A stretch of DNA of 64,000 nucleotides, from positions 10,884 to 74,883 of the forward strand of contig JADLFF010000034.1 in assembly GCA_020845735.1 (NCBI GenBank), read 5' to 3'. The position numbers were made by a program, and so were the translations under genes. Positions within the stretch are counted from its first letter, which is position 1; the number at the start of each line of letters is the position of its first letter. Below are positions 14,087 through 64,000 of the stretch, one piece after another. The stretch is from Dehalococcoidia bacterium. GTDB taxonomy: Bacteria > Chloroflexota > Dehalococcoidia > UBA2979. A model generated the notes under the pieces. The model worked only from the letters and a program-made list of their open reading frames with translations. It did no database searches and had not been told where the DNA came from.

Positions 14087-14248
14087 CGCAACCCTCGACA
14101 CGTCCGAGACGCAGGTGGGACTTGCCGTCCAATGCCATCCTATCGCGGGCCAGCCGCGTCGTGACTTCGCGCAGCCGACGACGACCGGTTTCAATCCAGA
14201 TTTGACGCGGGTGTGGAAAACTCGAGGGGAAAAAAATGAGAAAGTGTG

Positions 14249-14277
14249 TTGACTACTCATCCGATCAGTGGTCTGAT
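14249..14277 (+). promoter_or_regulatory. candidate sigma70-type promoter for the aquaporin gene (-35 TTGACT, 17 nt, -10 TCTGAT) overlapping an inverted repeat GATCAG-N4-CTGAT
   Basis: AT-richer divergent intergenic region between plsY and the aquaporin gene. Hexamers read directly; no experimental support. Confidence 0.3.
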
Positions 14278-14306
14278 TGCCGGGTTCGTGGTGACGAGGC
14301 GGGACG

Positions 14307-27347: not shown

Positions 27348-27460
27348 CCGCGCGTTCGCCGTGCTGATTCTTAGACTCCCCAAATTCACATCGCGATCAC
27401 ACTTCAGCAATCGGCATGTGACGACTCACCTCGACACTCAGTCGTGGAGGGGAGGGCGAC

Positions 27461-54553: not shown

Positions 54554-56266
54554 CTACGCGGCCCGCCGGAAGATATCAGGGTCGACCGGGACCTGGTCGA
54601 GGGTGAAGCCCCGCATCTGCGGGTCGCTCCGCCAGTAGGCATCCCACGACGTGGACACCTCCGCGAGCGCCTGCACCACGGACACATCGAGGCGTCCGTA
54701 GCTGACCTCCGCGCCGATGATCGCGAGCGCCTCCTCGCGCGTGCCACCTCGGCGGTACGGCCGGTCGGTGACCAGCGCATCGTAGTAGTCGGCCACCATG
54801 ATGATCCGAGGCGTCAGCGGCACGGCATCGCCCGCGAGCCCCAGGGGGTAGCCGCTCCCGTCCAGGCGCTCGTGGTGGAGGTACACGCCTTCCACCACCT
54901 CGGGGGCGAGCCCCACAGCCGCGAGGATGTCGTTCCCGACGACGGGGTGGACCTGGATCTGGCGGCGCTCCTCCTCGGTGAGCGCTCCGGGCTTGAGGAG
55001 CACCTCGTCGCGCACGCCGATCTTCCCGATGTCGTGGAGGTAGCCACCCACCTGGAGGTGCAACTGCTGCTCGGTGTTGAGGCCGAGGCACTGTCCGAGC
55101 AGGGACGCGAGGTGGCCCACCCGGAGCGAGTGCCCTCGGGTGTACGGATCCCGCGCATCGATTGCGGACACCAGCGAGGCGATGGCGCCGAGGTGCTGGT
55201 CCTGCAGCGCGCGGGTCATCCGGTCGAACGCGTCGCTCAGCTCGCCGATCTCGTCGCGGCGTTGCAGCCCGACTCGGGCCGTGAGGTTGCCGCCCGTGAC
55301 CGTCCGGCTGGTGCGCACCAGCTGGTCGAGCGCGTTCGTCAGGCGGCGGGCCACGCGCGCTCCCACCATCAGCGTCACGGCGATCGCGCCGAACAGCAGG
55401 AGCGACAGCTGGATGCGCGCGTCCTCGGTGGTCTCCCCGAGGAAGTCCGTGGGAAGCGCGACGGCGAGCGATCCGACCGGCTCACCCCGCAGCACCAGGT
55501 CGGAGTGGAGTTCCCGGTACGTGCGCTCGCCGAGGGCCACGGTGGTCATCTCGCCGGTGGGCGCCGCCGCTCCGGCCAGGGGGTCCTCCGCGCGGGCGAA
55601 CGACGTGGTCGCGAGGATCCGCCCGTCCCGGTCGAACGCCGTGACGTCCGCCAGCGCCTCGCGATGGGCTGCGAGCAGGGCGGTCGCCAGCCGGCTGCTG
55701 ACGAGGACAGCGCCTACGAGTTGCTCGCCCGCGCGCACCGGTGCGACCGTGACGATCCACGCCTCGCCGTCAACCTCGGCAAGTTCGATGAACTTGTCGC
55801 CCTTCTCATCGCTGGTCCCCGCAAGCACGCGCTCGATCCCCTCGAGGGCAGGCGTGCCGGCGGTGACGGGAGCGTAGGGCGCACCGGATGCCGCCGGTCG
55901 CACGAGCCCAAACTTGAGGACTCCCGCAGCGTCGAGCAGCTCGACGCGCTCGATCGTGGTGTTCGCGGCCAGCGGGCGCACGAGGGCGTCGAGCGTCTCC
56001 GGGCGTGCGCGCAGCGCTTCCGGGACTCCCGAGGTGAAGGCGATCGCGCGGGCGGTCTCGAGGTGGGCGCGCTCTCGGCGCACCAGCGACTCCGCCGCGA
56101 CGCGGCTGCCCTCGACCAGGTGCCCGACGAACCTCGATTCGGCCGATCCCGCGTAGAGCCCGGTGAGTGCGTACGCCCCCACGGCTGACGTCAGGATGAC
56201 GACCGCTGCGAACGGCAGGATGATCTGCCAGCGCACGGACACAAACGGCCTGAGTACCCTCAGCAC
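54554..56266 (-). CDS. HD-GYP domain phosphodiesterase with N-terminal double-TM sensor domain and HAMP
   Basis: HSLRVGHLA, GGYLHDIGKIGV, HHERLDGSGYP (HD-GYP). HAMP-like segment ARRLTNALDQLVRTSRTVTGGNLTARV. Confidence 0.85.
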   Translation of the reverse strand: MLRVLRPFVSVRWQIILPFAAVVILTSAVGAYALTGLYAGSAESRFVGHLVEGSRVAAESLVRRERAHLETARAIAFTSGVPEALRARPETLDALVRPLAANTTIERVELLDAAGVLKFGLVRPAASGAPYAPVTAGTPALEGIERVLAGTSDEKGDKFIELAEVDGEAWIVTVAPVRAGEQLVGAVLVSSRLATALLAAHREALADVTAFDRDGRILATTSFARAEDPLAGAAAPTGEMTTVALGERTYRELHSDLVLRGEPVGSLAVALPTDFLGETTEDARIQLSLLLFGAIAVTLMVGARVARRLTNALDQLVRTSRTVTGGNLTARVGLQRRDEIGELSDAFDRMTRALQDQHLGAIASLVSAIDARDPYTRGHSLRVGHLASLLGQCLGLNTEQQLHLQVGGYLHDIGKIGVRDEVLLKPGALTEEERRQIQVHPVVGNDILAAVGLAPEVVEGVYLHHERLDGSGYPLGLAGDAVPLTPRIIMVADYYDALVTDRPYRRGGTREEALAIIGAEVSYGRLDVSVVQALAEVSTSWDAYWRSDPQMRGFTLDQVPVDPDIFRRAA

Positions 56267-56604
56267 TCGCGTTCACCTAGCTCGCGGGCCTTTGGGTTGA
56301 TCGTCGGACGCTGTCCGCGGCCCGAATAGCCCGCGCGCTGGCTGGCGCGACCTCGATGTGCGTCCCCCTGGCCTCAGGACGTGGTCCCGTCGCTCCGATG
56401 AGGAGCGCGAGGTACTAGTCGTACGGCGGTGATGCCGCCCGCACGGCGCGCGCGGAACCCCTCGAGGCGGCGCGCGCCTCGAGCCACGCGCCGCCCCGCT
56501 CACGAGTCGGTGGTCTCACCTCGTGCTCACCTCGTGCTCACGTCGCGCTCGCCGGGCGCTCGCCCGCGGGGTTCCCACGGCGAGCCGTGCCTCGGCGGTC
56601 CGCG

Positions 56605-57579
56605 CTACACGCAGCGCACGAAGAAGGGCGTCGCCCCCTCCAGCGAGGCGGGGAGGCCCGCGTTGGCAGCCGGCGGCGCGCCGGCGATCATGATGCGCCA
56701 GGTCCCCTGCTGCAGCAGCGCCAGCGTCTCGACAGAGCATCCGCCCGAGGCGAGTGCGCCCGTCAGCTGCGACACGGGCTGGGCCGCGCCCGGACTCGTC
56801 ACCAGCAGCCCCGCCGAGGACGGGCGCGGCGCCGGTCCCACGAACGGGGTGCTCGGTGCCGTGGCGGTAGCGGTTGCCGTCGCCGTGGCGGTGGCCGTGC
56901 CGGTCGCTGTGGCGGTGGCGGTCGCCGTCGAGGTGGCCGTGGCTGTGCTTGCTGCGGCGAGCTGCGCTGAGATCGTGAGCGGGTCGAGCGGCAGTCCGGC
57001 GGTGTAGAACCCCGCGAACGCCTGGGCGCCCGAGGCCGTCAGCGTGGACTGGATGCCCGTCCAGTTCACGACGTTCGTGCCGGGCACAGCGGAGGCGCCC
57101 GTGAGGGTCGCGAGGGTCACGCCCGTGTACGGCACAGTCGTGGCCGACTCGAGCGACTTGCTGGTGATGTCGGCGACCAGCGACCCGCTGCCGCCCGAGA
57201 GCTGCACCCGCACGTTCGACACCACCATGTCGAGCTGGCCCGAATGCCCCTGGAAGCGCACGCTCCCCGAGAACGTGAACGATCCCACGCCGGTGCTCGC
57301 GTCATACGTGCCGCTGGCGAGTGGGAAGCGGTAGGTTCCGTCGCCGTTCACCGAGGCGCCGCCCTGAGGGCTCGTGCTGCCCTTCGCGATCGGCCCCACG
57401 ATGTAGCTGCGGAACGACTCCTTGATCCCCCAGTTGAGGTAGCCGCCCGTCGTCGTGACCTGCGCCGCCTCGAGGGGTGCCATCATCGCGAGGCCGCCCA
57501 CCAGGCCGGCGACAGCCACCACGATCACCGCCACCGACTGCCGCAGGCGCGACGCGCGCGCCATCGACTCGTGTCTCAT
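56605..57579 (-). CDS. htaA: HtaA-domain (heme-binding) secreted protein with (Thr-Ala)n linker and unknown C-terminal domain
   Basis: Signal/anchor, GGYLNWGIKESFRSYIVG...FSGSVRFQGHSGQLDM..SNVRVQL...GAQAFAGFYTAG (HtaA pattern), then TATATSTATATATATGTATATATATATATA. ATGA overlap with the hmuV stop. Confidence 0.8.
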   Translation of the reverse strand: MRHESMARASRLRQSVAVIVVAVAGLVGGLAMMAPLEAAQVTTTGGYLNWGIKESFRSYIVGPIAKGSTSPQGGASVNGDGTYRFPLASGTYDASTGVGSFTFSGSVRFQGHSGQLDMVVSNVRVQLSGGSGSLVADITSKSLESATTVPYTGVTLATLTGASAVPGTNVVNWTGIQSTLTASGAQAFAGFYTAGLPLDPLTISAQLAAASTATATSTATATATATGTATATATATATATAPSTPFVGPAPRPSSAGLLVTSPGAAQPVSQLTGALASGGCSVETLALLQQGTWRIMIAGAPPAANAGLPASLEGATPFFVRCV

Positions 57580-58460
57580 TCGGATTCCCCTTTCGCGGAG
57601 CCAACCAGCAAGCGTTCGCGTAGCTCCTCGGTGCGGTCGTCCCCTTGCCCGCTCGCGGCTGGCGACCGCGCGGCCACCACCACGGGCGTGCCGGTCCGCG
57701 GATGGGGCAGCACGTCCAGCTCGTGCTGATACACCGAGGTCAGAATCGTGTCCCGGAGGACGCTCGACGGCGGTCCCACCACGACGAGCGCCCCTCGAGC
57801 GAGGAGCGCGACGCGGTCCGCGTACGCCGCCGCCAGCCCGAGGTCGTGCATGACGACGACCGCCGCTGCACCGCCCTCGACCTGCCGGCGCACGCCCTGC
57901 ATCAGCAGCTCCTGGTGATGCACGTCGAGTGCCGCGGTCGGCTCATCGAGGAGGAGCAGGCGCGCACGCTGGGCAACAAGCCGGGCGAACGCGACTCGGG
58001 CGCGCTCACCTCCTGACAGCGACGTGAACTCCCGCGAGGCAAGGTCGGCCGCGTCCGCCTCGCGGAGGGCTTCCGCGACGATCGCTTCGTCCTCGGCCGG
58101 CGTGGTGTGCGCGGCCCACGGCGCGCGCGCCATCCGCACGACCTCGGCGACGGTGAACGGGAACGCGAGGTCGAACTGCTGAGGCAGCACCGCACGACAC
58201 CTCGCGAGGTCGCCGCGGCGCCAGCGCCGGAGCGGCGCGCCGTCCACCAGGACCTCCCCCGCGGTCGCAGGAAGGTCGCCCGCGAGCACGTGGAGCAGCG
58301 TCGACTTGCCCGCGCCGTTCGGACCGACCAGCGCCACCACCTCACCGGCGTGCACCTCGAGGTCGACGGCCTCGAGCACGAGGTGACTGCGTTGCTTCGC
58401 GGCGACGCCGCGCGCCTCGACGAGCGCGTGCGCTGATCGAGCTGGCGTGCTGGCGGTCAT
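57576..58460 (-). CDS. hmuV: heme/iron-siderophore ABC transporter ATP-binding protein
   Basis: Trimmed to ATG 58460 (ATGA overlap). GPNGAGKSTLL (Walker A), LSGGERARV (signature), LLLLDEPTAALD (Walker B). Confidence 0.88.
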   Translation of the reverse strand: MTASTPARSAHALVEARGVAAKQRSHLVLEAVDLEVHAGEVVALVGPNGAGKSTLLHVLAGDLPATAGEVLVDGAPLRRWRRGDLARCRAVLPQQFDLAFPFTVAEVVRMARAPWAAHTTPAEDEAIVAEALREADAADLASREFTSLSGGERARVAFARLVAQRARLLLLDEPTAALDVHHQELLMQGVRRQVEGGAAAVVVMHDLGLAAAYADRVALLARGALVVVGPPSSVLRDTILTSVYQHELDVLPHPRTGTPVVVAARSPAASGQGDDRTEELRERLLVGSAKGESE

Positions 58461-59560
58461 GCCCAGCCGCCCTGCCGCGAGCGCGTCCGCCGCAGGAGCC
58501 AGAAGAACAGCGGGCTGCCGAGCAGCGAGGTGAGCACGCCGAGGGGCAACTCTGCCGGCGCCGCCGCCACCCTCGCCACCAGGTCCGCGCTGACCAGGAT
58601 GAGCGATCCACCGAGGGCCGAGGCGGGGAGCAGGAGCGTGTGCCTCGGCCCCGCGACCATCCGCACGAGGTGCGGCGTCACGAGGCCGACGAACATCACG
58701 ATGCCCGAGACGGCGACCGCGGCCGCCGTCAGCAGCGCGACGACGGTGAGGCAGGTGATGCGCAGCCGCTCCACGTCCACTCCGAGGTGCGCCGCGGGCC
58801 GCTCGCCCAGCGCAAGCAGGTCGAGCTGCCGTGCCTGCGTGAACGCGAGCACGGTCGCCACCACGCCCACCGGGAACACGACGGCGACTCGGGCCCACGT
58901 GGCGCCGCCGACGCTTCCGAGCGTCCAGAAGGTGATCGAACGCAGCTCGCCGTCCTGCGCGAAGAACATGAGCAGTCCGATGATGGCCCCGGTCATGGCG
59001 TTCACCGCGATGCCCGTGAGGACCAGCGTGACCACCTCGGTGCGGCCGTCGGCCCGCGCCGAGGTGTACACGCCGAAGACCGTGACGAGTCCTCCGAGGA
59101 ACGCCGCGCCGGTGATGCTCCACGTCCCGCCGCTGCCGAGGCCGAGCACGATGTGCGCCACCGCCCCGACCACCGCGCCGGACGACACGCCGATCACGCC
59201 CGGCTCCGCGAGGGGGTTCGCAAACGCGCCCTGCATCACCGCGCCGGCCACCCCGAGGGATCCCCCGACGATCAGCGCGAGCGCGATGCGTGGGAATCGG
59301 ATCTCCCACAGCACCTGGTCTCCCATGTCCGCCGGCACCGGCCCGATCGCGAGGCCCGCGCGATGCGCGACAGAGCCGAGCACCTCGGCGGGTGTGAGGG
59401 CGTACGCGCCCGCACCGGCCGCGACGACCACGGCCACGCAGAGCGCCACCGTGAGCCCTCCGAGCAGCAACGCGGGGCGCATCCGGCGAATCGACGGCAC
59501 GACGCGCGGGACCACGGCGCGCACGGCCGGCGGTTGATGTGGCTTTGCGATCTGCGTCAC
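58457..59560 (-). CDS. hmuU: FecCD-family heme/iron ABC transporter permease
   Basis: 367 aa polytopic. RFPRIALALIVGGSLGVAGAVMQGAFANPLAEPGVIGVSSGA. GTGA overlap with the hmuT stop. Confidence 0.88.
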   Translation of the reverse strand: MTQIAKPHQPPAVRAVVPRVVPSIRRMRPALLLGGLTVALCVAVVVAAGAGAYALTPAEVLGSVAHRAGLAIGPVPADMGDQVLWEIRFPRIALALIVGGSLGVAGAVMQGAFANPLAEPGVIGVSSGAVVGAVAHIVLGLGSGGTWSITGAAFLGGLVTVFGVYTSARADGRTEVVTLVLTGIAVNAMTGAIIGLLMFFAQDGELRSITFWTLGSVGGATWARVAVVFPVGVVATVLAFTQARQLDLLALGERPAAHLGVDVERLRITCLTVVALLTAAAVAVSGIVMFVGLVTPHLVRMVAGPRHTLLLPASALGGSLILVSADLVARVAAAPAELPLGVLTSLLGSPLFFWLLRRTRSRQGGWA

Positions 59561-60570
59561 GGCCGCGCTCCGGCACTCGGCGCGGCCGTGCGCGGGGCGT
59601 GCAACCCCTCGATCAGCGCGCGGAGGGCGACCGGTGTGCGCGGGCCGAACGCGAACAGCAGGCTGTCCTCGAGGGTGACGATGCGGCGATCGCGGCCCGC
59701 GGGCGTCTGCGCGATGCCGGGGATTTGCACCAGCCCCTCGATGCCCCCGACAGACTCGAGGCCGGTCGTGGTCATGAGGATCACCTCGGGCGCCGCGCGC
59801 ACCAGCGCCTCGCTGCTGATCGGGGTGAACGGCCGGTCGAGGCCCATCGCGGTGCCGGCGTCCGTGGCTCCCGCCGCGACGATCATCGAGTCGGCGCCGG
59901 ACCGCGGCCCGCCGATGAGGTACACGCCCGCGTGTCCTCGCATGTAGAGGAACGCGACGCGCGGCGCGACCGCCGGCGCCTGCACCTCGTCGCGCGCGGC
60001 TGCCATCGCGGCCTCGGTTCGCGCGGCGAGGTCCTCACCCGCCGCCGGTACGCCGAGGGCGGCCGCGATCGTGCGGATGCGCGGCACGACGTCGTCGACG
60101 CTCTGCGGCTCGGCGAAGCGCACGACGGGGACACCGACGTTGCGAATGTGGTCGATCGCACTCGCGGGGCCCGTGTCCACCGAGGCAAGGACGAGCGTGG
60201 GGTGCAGCGACAGCACGGACTCCGCAGAGACGTCGTGGGCGCGGGTCACGAGGGGAATCGCCTCGGCCTCCGGGAAGGTGGCCGTGATGTCGCGCCCGAC
60301 GACCCGATCGCCCAGCCCGAGCCCGAACACGATCTCGGTGACGTTGCCCCAGAGGGAGACGATGCGCGTGGTGTCGGTGATCGTCACCTCGCGACCGTCC
60401 GCAGAACGCACCGTCACGGGCAGGGCGGGCGCCACGGGCGTGCCGACGACGACCTGCGGCTGAGGCGTCGCCGCGCCAACCCCGACCTCGGGCGGCCGGG
60501 CGGCGCCGGTGGTGGTGCAGGCGGCAGCAACGAGCGCCCAGGCCAGCACGGCCACGCGAGGGAAGCTCAT
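59557..60570 (-). CDS. hmuT: heme/hemin ABC transporter substrate-binding lipoprotein
   Basis: Trimmed to ATG 60570 (ATGA overlap with the upstream gene). Lipobox LVAAAC; class III SBP pattern RIVSL.GNVTEIVFGLGLGDRVVG. Confidence 0.8.
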   Translation of the reverse strand: MSFPRVAVLAWALVAAACTTTGAARPPEVGVGAATPQPQVVVGTPVAPALPVTVRSADGREVTITDTTRIVSLWGNVTEIVFGLGLGDRVVGRDITATFPEAEAIPLVTRAHDVSAESVLSLHPTLVLASVDTGPASAIDHIRNVGVPVVRFAEPQSVDDVVPRIRTIAAALGVPAAGEDLAARTEAAMAAARDEVQAPAVAPRVAFLYMRGHAGVYLIGGPRSGADSMIVAAGATDAGTAMGLDRPFTPISSEALVRAAPEVILMTTTGLESVGGIEGLVQIPGIAQTPAGRDRRIVTLEDSLLFAFGPRTPVALRALIEGLHAPRTAAPSAGARP

Positions 60571-61976
60571 CGCACCGTCTCGGTCCGCCGCCGCCGGAGG
60601 AGCATCGCCGAGTACGCAAGCAGCACGAGGGTCGAGACGAGGCCGGCCAGCGCGAGCGGCACGATGTCGAGGCGCTCGCCTCGGGCGGTCTCCGTGGCTG
60701 CGGCGGCCTCGTCCGCGACAGGCGCGGAGGCAGCGGGCTCCGAGGCGCTGGCGGGCGCGGGCTCGACCGCGGCCGGAGGCACCTCGACGAACGACACCGG
60801 GACGAACAGCTCGACCTCGGTCGCGCGTACGCCCTCCGTGTCCGCGCGCGTGCCGAGGGCGCACGCGACGACTCGGCAGTCGGTCTTCGCATCGATGATG
60901 GGCTTCACCGAGAGCGTGACGTCGAACGCGCCGTCGTCGCCGTAAGGCCGCGCGAGCGCGCGTGCGTACTCGGGCGGATTCGAGGAGATCCACGCCGACG
61001 CCGCGGTGCCGGCGGTGCAGGGGCCGGGCTTGCCGCCATCGGGCGGGACGGCGCAGATCGCGACGAACACACCTCGCGAGGTGTCGTACCCGGTGCCGCG
61101 CACGCGCACGTCGGCGCCCCCGGCGTCGAGGGCGATATCGCCCTCGACGCGCAGTTGCGCTCCCCCTCGAGTTGCGCCGCGCGAATCGGCATCGAGGAGG
61201 GCGGGCACTTCGGGCCGCACGGCAGGCGCCGCCGCGACGAGCTGCGCGGGCGCCACGGCCGGCGCCTCAGCGGGCGCGATGGTGCTCGAGACGGTGCTCG
61301 GGATGGCGGGCGCGAGGACCTCACGCGGGATGTCCGGAGGCGCACCGGCGGCGCTGACAACCTCCGAGGCAGGTGGTGTGGCGAGCGCAGCGGCCACGGG
61401 TGGGGCATCGGCTCCCGCGAACGTGATCGGGACGAAGACGTCCTGCGAGCGATCGCTGGTGCGGCGGTGGTCATTGCGCGAGACGACGGCACAGCGCACG
61501 ACGCGGCAGTCGGTCGTCGGGTTGATCTGCGGACTCACGGCGAGGGTGAACGAGAACGAGCCGCCCGCCTCGTACGGCGTGGCGAGGCCGTCGCCGTACG
61601 ACGGTGTGTCGGTGGCGGGCGAGACCCACCTCGCCGCCCCCGAGGAGCCCTCGAGGTCGATGTCGCCGCCACACGGCGTCGGGAGCTGGTTGAGCGCCGG
61701 GATCACGCAGAAGGCGACGTAGAGGCCCTTCTCCTCGTTGAACCCGGTGCCGCTCACGGTGACGACCTCGCCACCGGCGCCGAGCACGGCCTTCGACACG
61801 GTCAGCGTGCGGCGGCCGTCCGAGGCGGTGCGTCCGTCACTCGAGAGCCGCGTGATCGGAGCGACCAGCGGGTCGTCGGCCACCTGGGCGGCGGTCGTGC
61901 GCGGCTCCATCACGAGGCCGGTGAGGATGAGCCCGACGACGACGATCGCGCCGCGGTAGAGCGAGCTAATGGCCAT
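60567..61976 (-). CDS. uncharacterised secreted, C-terminally anchored protein with two homologous approximately 125-aa Cys-pair domains (neocarzinostatin/Ig-like by eye)
   Basis: Signal peptide. Internal repeat aa 56-187 and 273-396 sharing V.V.GTG[FY]...[KR]G[LV][YF]VA[FI]C..P...PC....W[VI]S...LA.PY..G.F..TL.V.P.I...TDCRVV.CA...FVP[IV].F. Pro/Ala linkers. C-terminal helix plus RRRR. First gene of the hmu operon. Confidence 0.75.
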   Translation of the reverse strand: MAISSLYRGAIVVVGLILTGLVMEPRTTAAQVADDPLVAPITRLSSDGRTASDGRRTLTVSKAVLGAGGEVVTVSGTGFNEEKGLYVAFCVIPALNQLPTPCGGDIDLEGSSGAARWVSPATDTPSYGDGLATPYEAGGSFSFTLAVSPQINPTTDCRVVRCAVVSRNDHRRTSDRSQDVFVPITFAGADAPPVAAALATPPASEVVSAAGAPPDIPREVLAPAIPSTVSSTIAPAEAPAVAPAQLVAAAPAVRPEVPALLDADSRGATRGGAQLRVEGDIALDAGGADVRVRGTGYDTSRGVFVAICAVPPDGGKPGPCTAGTAASAWISSNPPEYARALARPYGDDGAFDVTLSVKPIIDAKTDCRVVACALGTRADTEGVRATEVELFVPVSFVEVPPAAVEPAPASASEPAASAPVADEAAAATETARGERLDIVPLALAGLVSTLVLLAYSAMLLRRRRTETVR

Positions 61977-62067
61977 GGTTAGACTAATATCAGTTCGTAG
62001 GACATACTAGCAACTGCCATTCTATTCCACTAACTCTCACCAAATCGATGAGACGAGAGGACCCCCG
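61974..62067. promoter_or_regulatory. AT-rich divergent control region: IdeR/DtxR-like palindrome GGTTAGACTAAT overlapping a candidate minus-strand promoter (-35 TTGCTA, 18 nt, -10 TATTAG)
   Basis: The stretch from 61975 reads CATGGTTAGACTAATATCA, matching 13/19 positions of TWAGGTTAGSCTAACCTWA (by eye). The -10 ends 7 nt before the ATG at 61976 and no SD is present, so the transcript may be leaderless. The hmuO gene has a GAGAGGA RBS. Confidence 0.35.
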
Positions 62068-62724
62068 ATGCAGAGCGCAGTCGACATCGCCGACGCGGCC
62101 ACCTCGTTCTCGGCGGCGCTGCGCAGCGCCAGCCAGGCGGCCCACCGTCGCGCCGAACAGTCGGCGTTCATGCGCAACCTCGGGCGCTCGCAGGTCTCGC
62201 GAGAGCAGTACATCGACTTCGCCGCGCAGCAGTACTTCGTCTACGCCATCCTCGAGGAGGCGGCGGCGGTCTGGCGCGACGACCCGCTGCTCGCGCCGAT
62301 GCTCAGCCGCGACCTCGCGCGCGTCCCCGCCATCGAGGAGGACCTCGCGCACCTGATTGGCGACGACTGGCGCGCTGCCATCTCCGCCTCCGAGCCCACC
62401 CGCGCCTACTGCGCGCGCCTCCTCGAGGTCTGCTTCGACTGGGCGGGCGGCATGGTCGCGCACCACTACGTGCGCTACATGGGTGACCTCTCCGGTGGCC
62501 AGATCATCCGTCACACCATCGAGCGCACCCTCGGGTTTGACGCGACCAACGGCGCGCGCTTCTACGAGTTCGACCGGGTCCCGGATCTGGCCGCGTTCAA
62601 GGGCTCGTACCGCGGCCACCTCGACGCCCTGCCGTGGCCGGCCGCCGAGCGAGCGCGCGTGATCGAGGAAGTGCTCCACGCCTACGAGCTGAACACGCGC
62701 ATGCTCGAGGTGCTGGGCGGCTGA
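62068..62724 (+). CDS. hmuO: heme oxygenase (HO-1/HmuO family)
   Basis: 218 aa. AHRRAEQSAFMRNL (proximal His region), YVRYMGDLSGGQIIR, F..VPD...FK..YR..LD. Confidence 0.88.
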   Translation: MQSAVDIADAATSFSAALRSASQAAHRRAEQSAFMRNLGRSQVSREQYIDFAAQQYFVYAILEEAAAVWRDDPLLAPMLSRDLARVPAIEEDLAHLIGDDWRAAISASEPTRAYCARLLEVCFDWAGGMVAHHYVRYMGDLSGGQIIRHTIERTLGFDATNGARFYEFDRVPDLAAFKGSYRGHLDALPWPAAERARVIEEVLHAYELNTRMLEVLGG

Positions 62725-62788
62725 CGTCGGCGAGGCGCCTGCCTCCCCGCCGCCCGTCCCTCGAGCATGCGCCCGCACCGGAGCGACC

Positions 62789-64000
62789 TCAGTGGTCGCC
62801 GGTGCCCTCGCGCTCCACGGGCGCGATGCCCAGTCGCGCGCAGGCCTCCTGGTACATCCGCACGACCTCCGCGCGGATCTGAGCGCGCTCGGTGACGGGC
62901 TCGGACCACGGCACGCGCACGACCGACTGCGCGCCAGCCTCGACGACCGCGAACTCGATGCCGACGGCGTCCATCCCCGTCATCAGCGCGGACGACGCCG
63001 TGGGACGATCCCCCAGGCCCTGGCAGATCGCCAGCGACTCCTCGGGATGGTCCTGGTTCATGTGCCGCTTGACGGCTTCGATGACCTCTGGTGCGAACAA
63101 CGCACGCTCCTTTCGCTGACGGGCCGACCGTCGCTGCATTCGAGCTCCAAGCCACGTCAGCCCTCCGAGGGGGATCAGCGCCGCGAGGGGCGCCCACGGC
63201 ACGGCCCAGACGCTGCCGCTCGCGAGTGCCTGCGGCACCACCACGCCGTCGTTGCCGACCACGGCCGGCGACACCTCGAGGCGCGTGGCCAGCCAGAACA
63301 ACGGCGGCATGCGGTCGAGCGCCACGGTCGTCGTGTGGGCGGCGCCCGGCAGCAGCTCGGGCAGCTCGTCGAGCACCTGCTGCCGCACGGGGATCCCGAG
63401 GGGACCACTGACCGTCGCCTGCTGCGCGGCCCGCAGCCGCACGTTCCCTCGATTGCGCACGGTGTACGAGGCCTGCAGCATCCCGCGCCCGAACAGCGCC
63501 TGCGGCTCAAACCGGATCCCGAAGTCCTCGACGACCAGGTCCGGACGCAGGGGGCCGTTGACACGCAGGTACACGCGCGTGCCGACGCGCAGGTCGATCT
63601 TGACGGCATTGCCCGCCGCGTCGCTGGCGTCGGCGGTCCGGGAGGCGACGATGCCGCCCGCGTGGTCCCCCGGCGTCGCGTCCTGCGGAACGCGCAGCGA
63701 GAACGGGAGGAGGACGCGCTGCCTTGGCGCGAGGTCGACCCGCGCGTCGAGGTCGATCCACGAGCCCACGTCTCGGGGCTGCTGCCCCGCAGGCAGGAGG
63801 TCGAAGCCGCCCTCGGGCGTGGTGAAGGCGTCGCTGGCGTACACGCGCAGCGACAGCGGCTGCTCGCCGAGGTTCTGCACGCCGACGTAGTCGACGACGG
63901 TTGAGCCGCGTGCGAGGTCGTAGGTGAGGTTGGGGCGCGTCTCGGTGCCCGTGGCATTCGAGGGCTGGATCGACCAGCTCGCGTTGCCCGGACCTCCCTG
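62789..64000 (-). CDS. single-pass membrane protein: extracellular DUF916-like surface domain + TM + cytoplasmic DUF2470 (heme-utilisation type) domain; N-terminus beyond window
   Basis: The frame stays open upstream of the track's start (GTG 63880) to the window edge (...GNASWSIQPSNATGTETRPNLTYDLARGSTVVDYVGVQNLGEQPLSLRVYASDAF...). TM segment VWAVPWAPLAALIPLGGLTWLGA followed by RMQRRSARQRKER. C-terminal VIEAVKRHMNQDHPEESLAICQ...MTGMDAVGIEF...VRVPW.EPV.ERAQIR.E.V.M. Confidence 0.7.
   Translation of the reverse strand, partial: QGGPGNASWSIQPSNATGTETRPNLTYDLARGSTVVDYVGVQNLGEQPLSLRVYASDAFTTPEGGFDLLPAGQQPRDVGSWIDLDARVDLAPRQRVLLPFSLRVPQDATPGDHAGGIVASRTADASDAAGNAVKIDLRVGTRVYLRVNGPLRPDLVVEDFGIRFEPQALFGRGMLQASYTVRNRGNVRLRAAQQATVSGPLGIPVRQQVLDELPELLPGAAHTTTVALDRMPPLFWLATRLEVSPAVVGNDGVVVPQALASGSVWAVPWAPLAALIPLGGLTWLGARMQRRSARQRKERALFAPEVIEAVKRHMNQDHPEESLAICQGLGDRPTASSALMTGMDAVGIEFAVVEAGAQSVVRVPWSEPVTERAQIRAEVVRMYQEACARLGIAPVEREGTGDH

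Follow-up and report, generated by a model that had tools for sequence, protein, structure and literature searches.

A heme-acquisition locus from Chloroflexota with a predicted neocarzinostatin-fold neighbor of HmuT and a WxLIP-like protein carrying a DRI domain

What are two uncharacterized genes doing in an otherwise familiar heme uptake cluster? The question is raised by a 64-kb stretch of DNA from a Dehalococcoidia bacterium (contig JADLFF010000034.1), called the window here (positions 1 to 64000; all coordinates follow its numbering). One of the two, the lead gene, heads a chain with hmuT, hmuU, hmuV, and htaA; the other converges on the heme oxygenase gene hmuO and joins DUF916, a transmembrane (TM) segment, and DUF2470. 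An original prediction took both for extra, undescribed components of a variant heme-capture pathway. That they belong to heme loci is borne out below, whereas part of the novelty is not: the link between DUF2470 and heme oxygenase, and the identity of DUF916 as the WxL-interacting protein (WxLIP), had already been published. The region is a real heme-import and heme-breakdown cluster with the conserved core HtaA, HmuTUV, and HmuO, and both genes are recurring parts of heme clusters in many soil and water bacteria. Our explanation, which we hold to be rather probable as a whole, is that this is one heme-acquisition locus in which three modules that depart from the Corynebacterium model add to the core.

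The case for the lead gene starts with its neighbors. A scan for relatives, with one genome per species, found 266, and locus counts were taken from the best 80. In 73 of these 80 loci, hmuT lies 88 to 1,325 bp from the domain that is repeated in the lead protein, which we call the neocarzinostatin (NCS)-fold domain on structural grounds given below; in the other 7, the contig ends within 900 bp. Where at least 3 kb of flank was available on both sides, the two adjoin each other without exception (62/62 loci). The remaining partners recur less regularly in the 80 loci (hmuV in 60, hmuU in 58, hmuO in 48, DUF2470 in 36, HtaA in 34, and DUF916 in 20). Loci pairing the NCS-fold domain with hmuT occur in Acidimicrobiia, Micromonosporaceae, Nonomuraea, Streptomyces, Nakamurella, Frankiaceae, and Chloroflexota. 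Co-conservation with hmuTUV and htaA, on which the original prediction had staked its case, is thus seen for the lead domain, and the DUF916-DUF2470 fusion recurs in two other genomes.

Fusions tell the same story. Among 250 family members, the NCS-fold domain is joined to HmuT as a single copy in 10 and as a tandem in 9; NCS-HtaA and NCS-NCS-WxL fusions occur once each, and a DUF2470 domain (renamed DRI, as discussed below) precedes two NCS-fold domains in 2. The proteins P0011 and P0258 have DRI tethered ahead of the NCS-fold protein. Several of the HmuT fusions run from a signal peptide through the NCS-fold domain into HmuT with no TM segment between the domains. In Micromonospora (L050:6063-9772, minus strand), a 506-residue protein unites an HtaA domain with a variant NCS-like domain and carries a WxL-like tail. 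Taken with the neighborhoods, this makes it very likely that the lead protein is part of the heme system.

Two of these groups of loci have further peculiarities. In the Micromonospora locus, DUF916 comes after the gene for the 506-residue protein, and next in line is a 316-residue membrane protein without a family assignment. In a set of Streptomyces loci (L052, L060, L062, L065, L068, L069, L071-L073, L076, L077, and L079), there are three separate NCS-fold genes and a divergent hmuT, with two IdeR boxes and no hmuU or hmuV within 10 kb.

What kind of domain is it? The two repeats of the lead protein, whose two-domain build had been noticed from the outset, are 38% identical (E 1e-28) and are covered by no Pfam model. 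The neocarzinostatin model PF00960 reaches 16.5 bits on the repeat against a cut-off of 25, over the first 35 residues only, and the NCBIfam chromoprotein model NF040680 reaches 23 on the lead domain against a cut-off of 86. With the AlphaFold2 (AF2) model of domain 1 (pLDDT 88) as the query, the top 12 PDB matches in Foldseek were all enediyne apoproteins or engineered neocarzinostatins, including macromomycin, C-1027, neocarzinostatin, and kedarcidin (E 5e-6 to 7e-4; TM scores of 0.63 to 0.75), at 17 to 20% sequence identity between the enediyne apoproteins and the lead domain. The modeled domain is a seven-stranded immunoglobulin (Ig)-like sandwich with two predicted disulfides. In the family alignment, the invariant residues of domain 1 are Tyr86, His170, Trp117, and the pairs Cys90/Cys102 and Cys157/Cys162, and the spacing of the four cysteines resembles that of the two neocarzinostatin disulfides. 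Because the predicted fold matches while the Pfam model falls short, we read the repeat as a distant NCS-fold domain outside the apoprotein family. The family of the lead domain itself is a sizable one: in a profile search of 1.84 billion representatives, 917 proteins passed E ≤ 1e-3, of which 283 also passed E ≤ 1e-30, and the family forms about 900 clusters at 50% identity.

Other assignments of the lead protein fared poorly. The Pfam entry PF11054, "Sporozoite surface antigen," scored 27.4 bits over 48 residues of the full protein, just above its cut-off, and was judged spurious because the domain alone scores 19.4, under the cut-off, and has an NCS-like fold. Profile hidden Markov model searches of all seven proteins, proposed with the original prediction, placed HtaA and DUF2470 above their cut-offs and DUF916 narrowly below, and none of the proteins matched NEAT (PF05031) at E ≤ 0.01; NEAT structures were likewise absent from the top 50 Foldseek matches of domain 1.

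The conserved residues offer a view of what the domain might do. First or single domains have the Tyr without exception (120/120) and the His in all but one case (119/120). Last domains are different in that His is kept in only 6/61, with Asp in its place in 40/61, and domain 2 of the lead protein retains the four cysteines with Phe and Thr replacing Tyr and His. Such a pattern of competent and incompetent repeats recalls that of NEAT and CR proteins. Domain 1 is a candidate ligand-binding module. We propose that domain 1 would bind heme through Tyr86 and His170 and hand it to the lipoprotein HmuT, while domain 2 would act as a spacer or docking module. Relay of heme to the lipoprotein is the job of NEAT domains in Isd systems and of HtaB in corynebacteria. 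We infer both heme binding by the NCS-fold domain and the direction of transfer from sequence conservation and context, and we lean slightly toward the view that the lead protein binds heme and feeds HmuT.

It is also conceivable that the NCS-fold protein belongs to the heme system and binds no heme, serving as a scaffold that positions HmuT and/or HtaA in the cell envelope or as a receptor that takes hemoproteins and not free heme. Neighborhoods and fusions indicate partnership and not the identity of a ligand, the second domain has neither Tyr nor His, and the only PDB sequence related to the NCS-fold profile, Corynebacterium glutamicum ThiX (7qhm chain M; E 6e-9), is a structural subunit of a membrane complex. 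ThiX is attached on the outside of the membrane, as the lead protein would be, and differs in being a single-domain, lipid-anchored subunit of the cytochrome bcc-aa3 supercomplex, the soluble domain of which is unresolved in 7qhm. We consider the scaffold unlikely, given that the NCS fold binds small molecules and the top structural matches are all chromophore carriers, that axial-ligand pairs typically show the near-perfect conservation seen here for Tyr and His of first or single domains, and that direct N-terminal fusion to heme-binding HmuT suits a relay.

The heme relay that we propose presupposes that the transporter downstream carries heme. The N terminus of HmuT ends in LVAAAC, and the protein is probably a lipoprotein, judging from this motif. 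Its PDB matches at E ≤ 1e-10 number 11, every one from a heme-transport system; 6 of the 11 are named heme or hemin binding (e.g., Yersinia pestis HmuT, 3md9), and the rest bear generic periplasmic-binding names, as do 5az3, 5b4z, 5b50, and 5b51, which are C. glutamicum HmuT. The Tyr-x-Arg heme-ligand motif of HmuT (FLYMRG) aligns to Tyr240-x-Arg242 of C. glutamicum HmuT, and the match to the IsdE model is weak. HmuV passes the curated heme ABC-ATPase equivalog model NF010068. The closest matches of hmuTUV sit in metagenome-assembled genomes (MAGs) of Acidimicrobiia and Chloroflexota, not in Corynebacterium, in keeping with the non-corynebacterial look that had been ascribed to the lineage.

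The HtaA and HmuO proteins are equally recognizable. Aligned to C. glutamicum HtaA (6jsa) and its His-to-Ala mutant (6jsc), HtaA of the window retains KESFRSYIVG, QGHSG, and FAGFYTAG, and with them the axial Tyr, the hydrogen-bonding His, and the Ser/Phe heme-pocket residues of the C. glutamicum and Corynebacterium diphtheriae CR structures. It is a secreted protein that consists of one CR domain, a (Thr-Ala)n linker, and an 83-residue C-terminal domain with two Cys, for which neither Pfam nor the window nor any of 163 fetched loci gave a match; no membrane anchor was detected. In HmuO, the proximal His (AAHRRAEQ) and the distal-helix motif YMGDLSGGQ align with the HO-1 and HmuO structures, and the enzyme would open the porphyrin and so release iron. 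As a side observation, the HtaA linker is encoded by a 6-nt tandem repeat (GCCGTG, 15 copies, 56858-56947) and could vary in length.

Might the HmuTUV-like transporter and the NCS-fold protein instead carry another ligand, for instance a corrinoid, a metallophore, or a tetrapyrrole other than heme? Heme, B12, and siderophores are all handled by FecCD/PF01497 systems, BtuC models give HmuU good scores, albeit below their cut-offs, and HmuT lacks one of the two axial ligands of C. glutamicum HmuT. With HmuV passing the heme equivalog model, all 11 close PDB relatives of HmuT coming from heme transport, and HtaA and a canonical heme oxygenase recurring in the loci, we regard a different ligand as very unlikely. 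The ligand in question, His141, is in any case not universal among heme-binding proteins of this class: 5gj3, the closest relative of HmuT, also has no equivalent of it.

The gene that converges on hmuO adds a second surface component. Its architecture and DUF2470 match were as the original prediction had it, with the correction that the open reading frame (ORF) runs open to base 64000, so that the first 40 codons lie outside the window; the full-length product (P0121) has 443 residues. DUF916 (PF06030) scores 26.0 bits on the full protein and 20.4 on the window fragment against a cut-off of 27.3, and DUF3324 gave no match in the protein. DUF916 was defined in 2023 as a WxL-interacting protein, and WxLIPs, which are DUF916-DUF3324-TM proteins, bind and stabilize surface proteins with WxL tails (PMC10599100). 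DUF916 homologs bear the NCBI name "WxL protein peptidoglycan domain-containing." In an AF2 model of P0121 (pLDDT 85.7), two beta-sandwich domains are followed by a long TM helix (residues 309 to 341) and the DRI domain. The top Foldseek matches of this model are Enterococcus faecium WxLIP bound to a WxL protein (9i25_C, E 2.2e-11) and WxLIP alone (9i1y, E 5e-11), with TM scores of 0.57 to 0.60. By this model, the DUF916 part is a structural homolog of the Enterococcus WxLIP. Across the aligned DUF916 ectodomains, the motif TPGDHxGGIVAS and the Tyr of VYASDAF are invariant.

The DUF916-TM-DUF2470 fusion was found in three genomes. Among the 120 relatives listed, only P0122 (48% identical) shares it, and the others are DUF916-TM proteins. 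P0122 lies in an operon on contig L081 that reads htaA, htaA, DUF916-DRI, htaA, NCS-NCS, hmuT, hmuU, and hmuV, with hmuO divergent; L082, the closest relative of the window, has the same layout as the window, including the fusion. The rarity of the fusion, and the fact that most DUF916 genes lie outside heme loci, could be taken to mean that the two unknown genes are unrelated neighbors and that the fusion is an accident without functional meaning. We find this scarcely credible, since hmuT adjoins the NCS-fold domain in every locus with enough flank and in two phyla, several domain fusions arose independently, and the DUF916-DRI fusion has been kept between proteins as diverged as P0121 and P0122 and is placed inside the operon in L081.

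A WxLIP calls for a WxL partner, and there are signs of one. A 150-residue C-terminal domain ending in PGEYSGTLTLTVI is common to the two L081 HtaA proteins that precede the fusion and to the HtaA-NCS protein of L050. With these three tails as queries, 70/80 DUF916-anchored metagenome loci had a WxL-like tail ending 100 to 300 bp upstream of DUF916 and on its strand. So did 21/22 heme loci with DUF916, where the tail mostly comes right behind an HtaA domain. For the window itself, a 1,475-bp public Logan contig encodes exactly P0121 and shows the end of the upstream gene, whose product ends in ...PGSYGATLTLTAI, the WxL-like tail motif (L163:1-75); the C terminus of that product, DLNLEVPTTTEPGSYGATLTLTAI (also given as EPGSYGATLTLTAI*), is 64 nt before the start codon of P0121. 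A WxL-tailed gene therefore lies just past base 64000, and the heme island extends beyond the window. The WxLIP here very probably has a WxL-tailed partner, and we infer that its ectodomain would keep this partner, by analogy with related loci probably an HtaA-type heme binder, on the surface of the cell. The C-terminal domain of the window HtaA was also considered as a WxL tail and was rejected, as it has no similarity to the WxL-like tails.

At the other end of the WxLIP-like protein is the DRI domain, which we place in the cytoplasm because the basic stretch RMQRRSARQRKER directly follows the TM helix. DUF2470 was renamed DRI in 2024. Synechocystis Dri1 binds heme, and its His16/His21 pair is strictly conserved; an Actinomycetota subfamily is fused to, or operonic with, canonical heme oxygenase (PMC11014987). 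The motif HMNQDH of the window protein aligns with KHMNEDH of Dri1 (Ssr1698; His16/His21) and also with MSMEG_6519 and plant HOZ. The zinc-mirror axial ligand His79 of Dri1 is Arg in the window protein; the zinc-mirror site of Dri1 (Glu76, His79, and Arg90) is specific to cyanobacteria (PMC11014987). DRI genes are iron regulated in Mycobacterium tuberculosis and coexpressed in actinomycetes with siderophore clusters. That DRI is linked to HmuO is thus already known, and the membrane tether is the new part. Tethering arose at least twice, behind the WxLIP here and ahead of the NCS-fold domain in P0011 and P0258. The domain may be either a heme acceptor for HmuO or a sensor, and it would sit on the membrane's inner side, next to HmuUV and upstream of HmuO.

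The sensor possibility can be taken further, with the WxLIP-DRI protein as a transmembrane regulator in which heme occupancy of DRI modulates HmuO, HmuUV, or heme synthesis or in which occupancy of the surface domain is signaled inward. DRI has been proposed as a regulatory domain that depends on heme, with Dri1 acting on succinate dehydrogenase and GBP on GluTR (PMC11014987), and Rv3839 appears to regulate heme synthesis (PMC13258150); a single-pass topology, moreover, joins a binding module outside to a heme-binding module inside. We nonetheless think the regulator somewhat doubtful. No output domain is present, and DRI is mostly a free-standing small protein beside hmuO (36/80 loci), so that tethering is not needed for DRI function.

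How might such a locus be controlled? The spacer between the lead gene and hmuO is one of only three stretches in the window with less than 50% GC per 60 nt, against a background of about 73%; the other two are at 14181-14290 and 27361-27420. A palindrome, TTAGACTAA, occupies 61979-61987, directly 5' of the lead ATG on the lead gene's own strand. In the window and in L082 alike, this 9-bp palindrome (TTAGNCTAA) is present a single time and in the same position, and the footprint common to the two spacers is AGTTGCTAGTAT, then 9 or 10 bases, then ACTGATATTAGTCTAAC, directly before the lead ATG. In a manual alignment, the palindrome core matches the IdeR box core at 10/11 bases and the full box at 12/19, a likeness that is suggestive only as a regulatory hint. 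A promoter and terminator scan of the spacer gave nothing useful. Loci of the class Actinomycetes have IdeR boxes with 16 to 18 of 19 matches 100 to 300 bp upstream of the NCS-fold domain, nearly the sole such sites in each 20-kb locus. In Iamia, Ilumatobacteraceae, and other Acidimicrobiales, the IdeR boxes are replaced by CACGAC-N4-TGTCGTG palindromes, one to three per hmuO-NCS spacer and accompanied by the half-site AGGCATGCCTAAC (L003, L004, L005, L012, L020, L029, L036, L038, L042, and L051); these may be a regulator's operator. Judging from the conserved palindrome, the window locus is probably iron regulated.

Several observations weigh against the explanation assembled above. ThiX, not known to bind heme, retains the same Tyr, Asp-His, and four Cys as the NCS-fold domain, and because of this, the conserved residues could be structural. 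That Tyr86 and His170 face one pocket is an assumption. Where C. glutamicum HmuT has its second axial ligand, His141, the window HmuT has Val-Asp aligned and so lacks it. On the WxL side, the WxL-like tails fall under the Pfam WxL cut-off (14.8 and 18.9 bits versus 25), the window's own HtaA has no such tail and none was found anywhere in the window, and the identity of the WxL-tailed partner as HtaA, though probable, is drawn from L081, the upstream gene of P0121 being visible at its C-terminal end. DUF916 is a broad family, with heme genes in only about 8 of the 80 DUF916-anchored loci, and its heme role is therefore specific to a subfamily; DUF916 as a general marker of heme loci was rejected on the same count. 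Finally, there is no canonical IdeR site with at least 13/19 matches in the window, for which reason we make no claim of IdeR control there, and the indication of iron regulation comes down to the conserved 9-bp palindrome.

These points notwithstanding, the locus can be set beside the systems it resembles. With the Corynebacterium HtaA/HtaB-HmuTUV-HmuO system it shares the Tyr/His pocket of the HtaA CR domain, the Tyr-x-Arg of HmuT, the HmuUV importer, a canonical heme oxygenase, and, as seen in actinomycete homologs, DtxR/IdeR-type control. It departs from that system in that its HtaA, built with a single CR domain and lacking a membrane anchor, comes last in the operon, that no second CR-domain gene of the HtaB or ChtA-C type is present in the region examined, that an NCS-fold protein fills the slot directly upstream of hmuT, that a WxLIP-DRI protein is added, and that the lineage is not corynebacterial. 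The Isd/NEAT relay of Staphylococcus and Bacillus is similar in its proposed logic, with anchored tandem beta-sandwich domains, of which only some repeats have ligand residues, feeding the heme-binding lipoprotein of a FecCD-type ABC importer; unlike it, the window proteins have no NEAT domain, the fold is that of an enediyne apoprotein, and the anchor is a TM helix and not a sortase signal.

Similar comparisons can be made for the individual modules. The enediyne apoproteins (PF00960) are the best structural matches of the lead domain and supply the precedent of a small-molecule carrier fold, whereas the lead domain is about 35 residues longer, membrane anchored, and in tandem, and genes of its type lie beside hmuT and not in an enediyne gene cluster. 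The WxL/WxLIP pairs of Enterococcus and Lactobacillus (PMC10599100; 9i25 and 9i1y) likewise have two tandem Ig-like domains and one TM helix, in a gene that almost always comes right after one with a WxL-like tail; the differences are an actinobacterial or Chloroflexota-like host, subthreshold Pfam scores for DUF916 and WxL, HtaA as the cargo in heme loci, and the cytoplasmic DRI of the window copy. Compared with DRI proteins such as Dri1, actinomycete DRI, HugZ/ChuZ, and Rv3839, the window domain is alike in scoring above the Pfam threshold, in having H-x4-H, and in standing beside a canonical heme oxygenase, and unlike them in being tethered to the membrane behind a surface protein and in the change of Dri1 His79 to Arg.

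We know of no described WxLIP that carries a DRI domain, and, to our knowledge, Gram-positive heme uptake is understood almost wholly from pathogens, through Isd/NEAT, Corynebacterium HtaA, and Streptococcus Shr. A literature search, with subscription journals outside its coverage, turned up no publication that connects the neocarzinostatin fold with heme uptake or HtaA with WxL/WxLIP. We could not find described an NCS-fold partner of HmuT, WxL/WxLIP in heme loci, or a membrane-tethered DRI. It is a tentative proposal, for which we would claim somewhat less than even confidence, that the NCS-fold domain is a new class of heme relay or hemophore module, next to NEAT and HtaA-CR domains, which feeds HmuT in Actinomycetota and Chloroflexota, that WxL/WxLIP displays HtaA in a subset of these systems, and that the WxLIP of this organism couples the surface through its one TM helix to a cytoplasmic DRI, whereby a single protein would join capture outside to hand-off or sensing inside. 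If this is true, many environmental Actinomycetota and Chloroflexota would use a different surface module, of the enediyne-carrier fold, bound to hmuT as tightly as any known partner, and several hundred proteins that at present bear the label "hypothetical" or "neocarzinostatin apoprotein domain-containing" could be given functional names. Display by WxL/WxLIP, so far described mainly in Firmicutes and tied there to adhesion, would gain a role in nutrient uptake, and heme-binding DRI domains could be membrane tethered.

The layout of the locus is given in Table 1. The five minus-strand genes form the chain foreseen by the original prediction, in the order lead gene, hmuT, hmuU, hmuV, and htaA confirmed by their ORFs and Pfam or NCBIfam matches, and successive genes share 4-nt start/stop overlaps (ATGA at 60567-60570, GTGA at 59557-59560, ATGA at 58457-58460, and ATGA at 57576-57579). 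The divergent heme oxygenase and the AT-rich spacer before it were likewise found as described.

Table 1. Features of the heme-acquisition locus in window coordinates
Feature	Position	Strand	Remarks
Lead gene	60567-61976	-	469-residue surface protein; signal peptide, two NCS-fold repeats (predicted), Pro/Ala linkers, C-terminal TM anchor, then RRRR
NCS-fold domain 1, "type 1" (predicted)	61404-61847	-	Lead residues 44-191
NCS-fold domain 2, "type 2" (predicted)	60774-61196	-	Lead residues 261-401
C-terminal membrane anchor of lead protein	60606-60674	-	Hydrophobic segment from about residue 435, RRRR after
hmuT	59557-60570	-	PF01497, 109.5 bits
hmuU, FecCD-type permease	58457-59560	-	PF01032, 305 bits
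hmuV, heme ABC transporter ATPase	57576-58460	-	NCBIfam NF010068, 299.5 bits, cut-off 261
htaA	56605-57579	-	PF04213, 176.7 bits, cut-off 24, residues 46-204
HtaA CR domain	56968-57444	-	The one CR domain of this HtaA
HtaA C-terminal 83-residue domain, two Cys	56608-56856	-	Unmatched
Divergent spacer, promoter/operator region	61977-62067	.	91 bp, 46% GC
hmuO, canonical heme oxygenase	62068-62724	+	PF01126, 188.9 bits
WxLIP-like (DUF916)-TM-DRI (DUF2470) gene	62789-64000	-	5' end beyond window
WxLIP-like ectodomain, two tandem beta-sandwich domains (modeled)	63206-63976	-	Residues 49-305
TM helix of WxLIP-DRI protein	63128-63196	-	Basic stretch RMQRRSARQRKER after helix
DRI/DUF2470 domain, cytoplasmic	62855-63073	-	PF10615, 62.5 to 63 bits versus cut-off 22
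H-x4-H motif HMNQDH of DRI domain	63047-63064	-	Inside DRI/DUF2470

No tRNA genes were found in the 64-kb window. Downstream of htaA, at a distance of 338 nt and on the same strand, is a gene whose membrane-protein product contains dCache_3, HAMP, and HD-GYP-type (HD_5) domains (54554-56266, minus strand), and a short way downstream of the htaA stop codon is an 11-nt tandem repeat, CTCACCTCGTG, in 3.3 copies (56515-56550).

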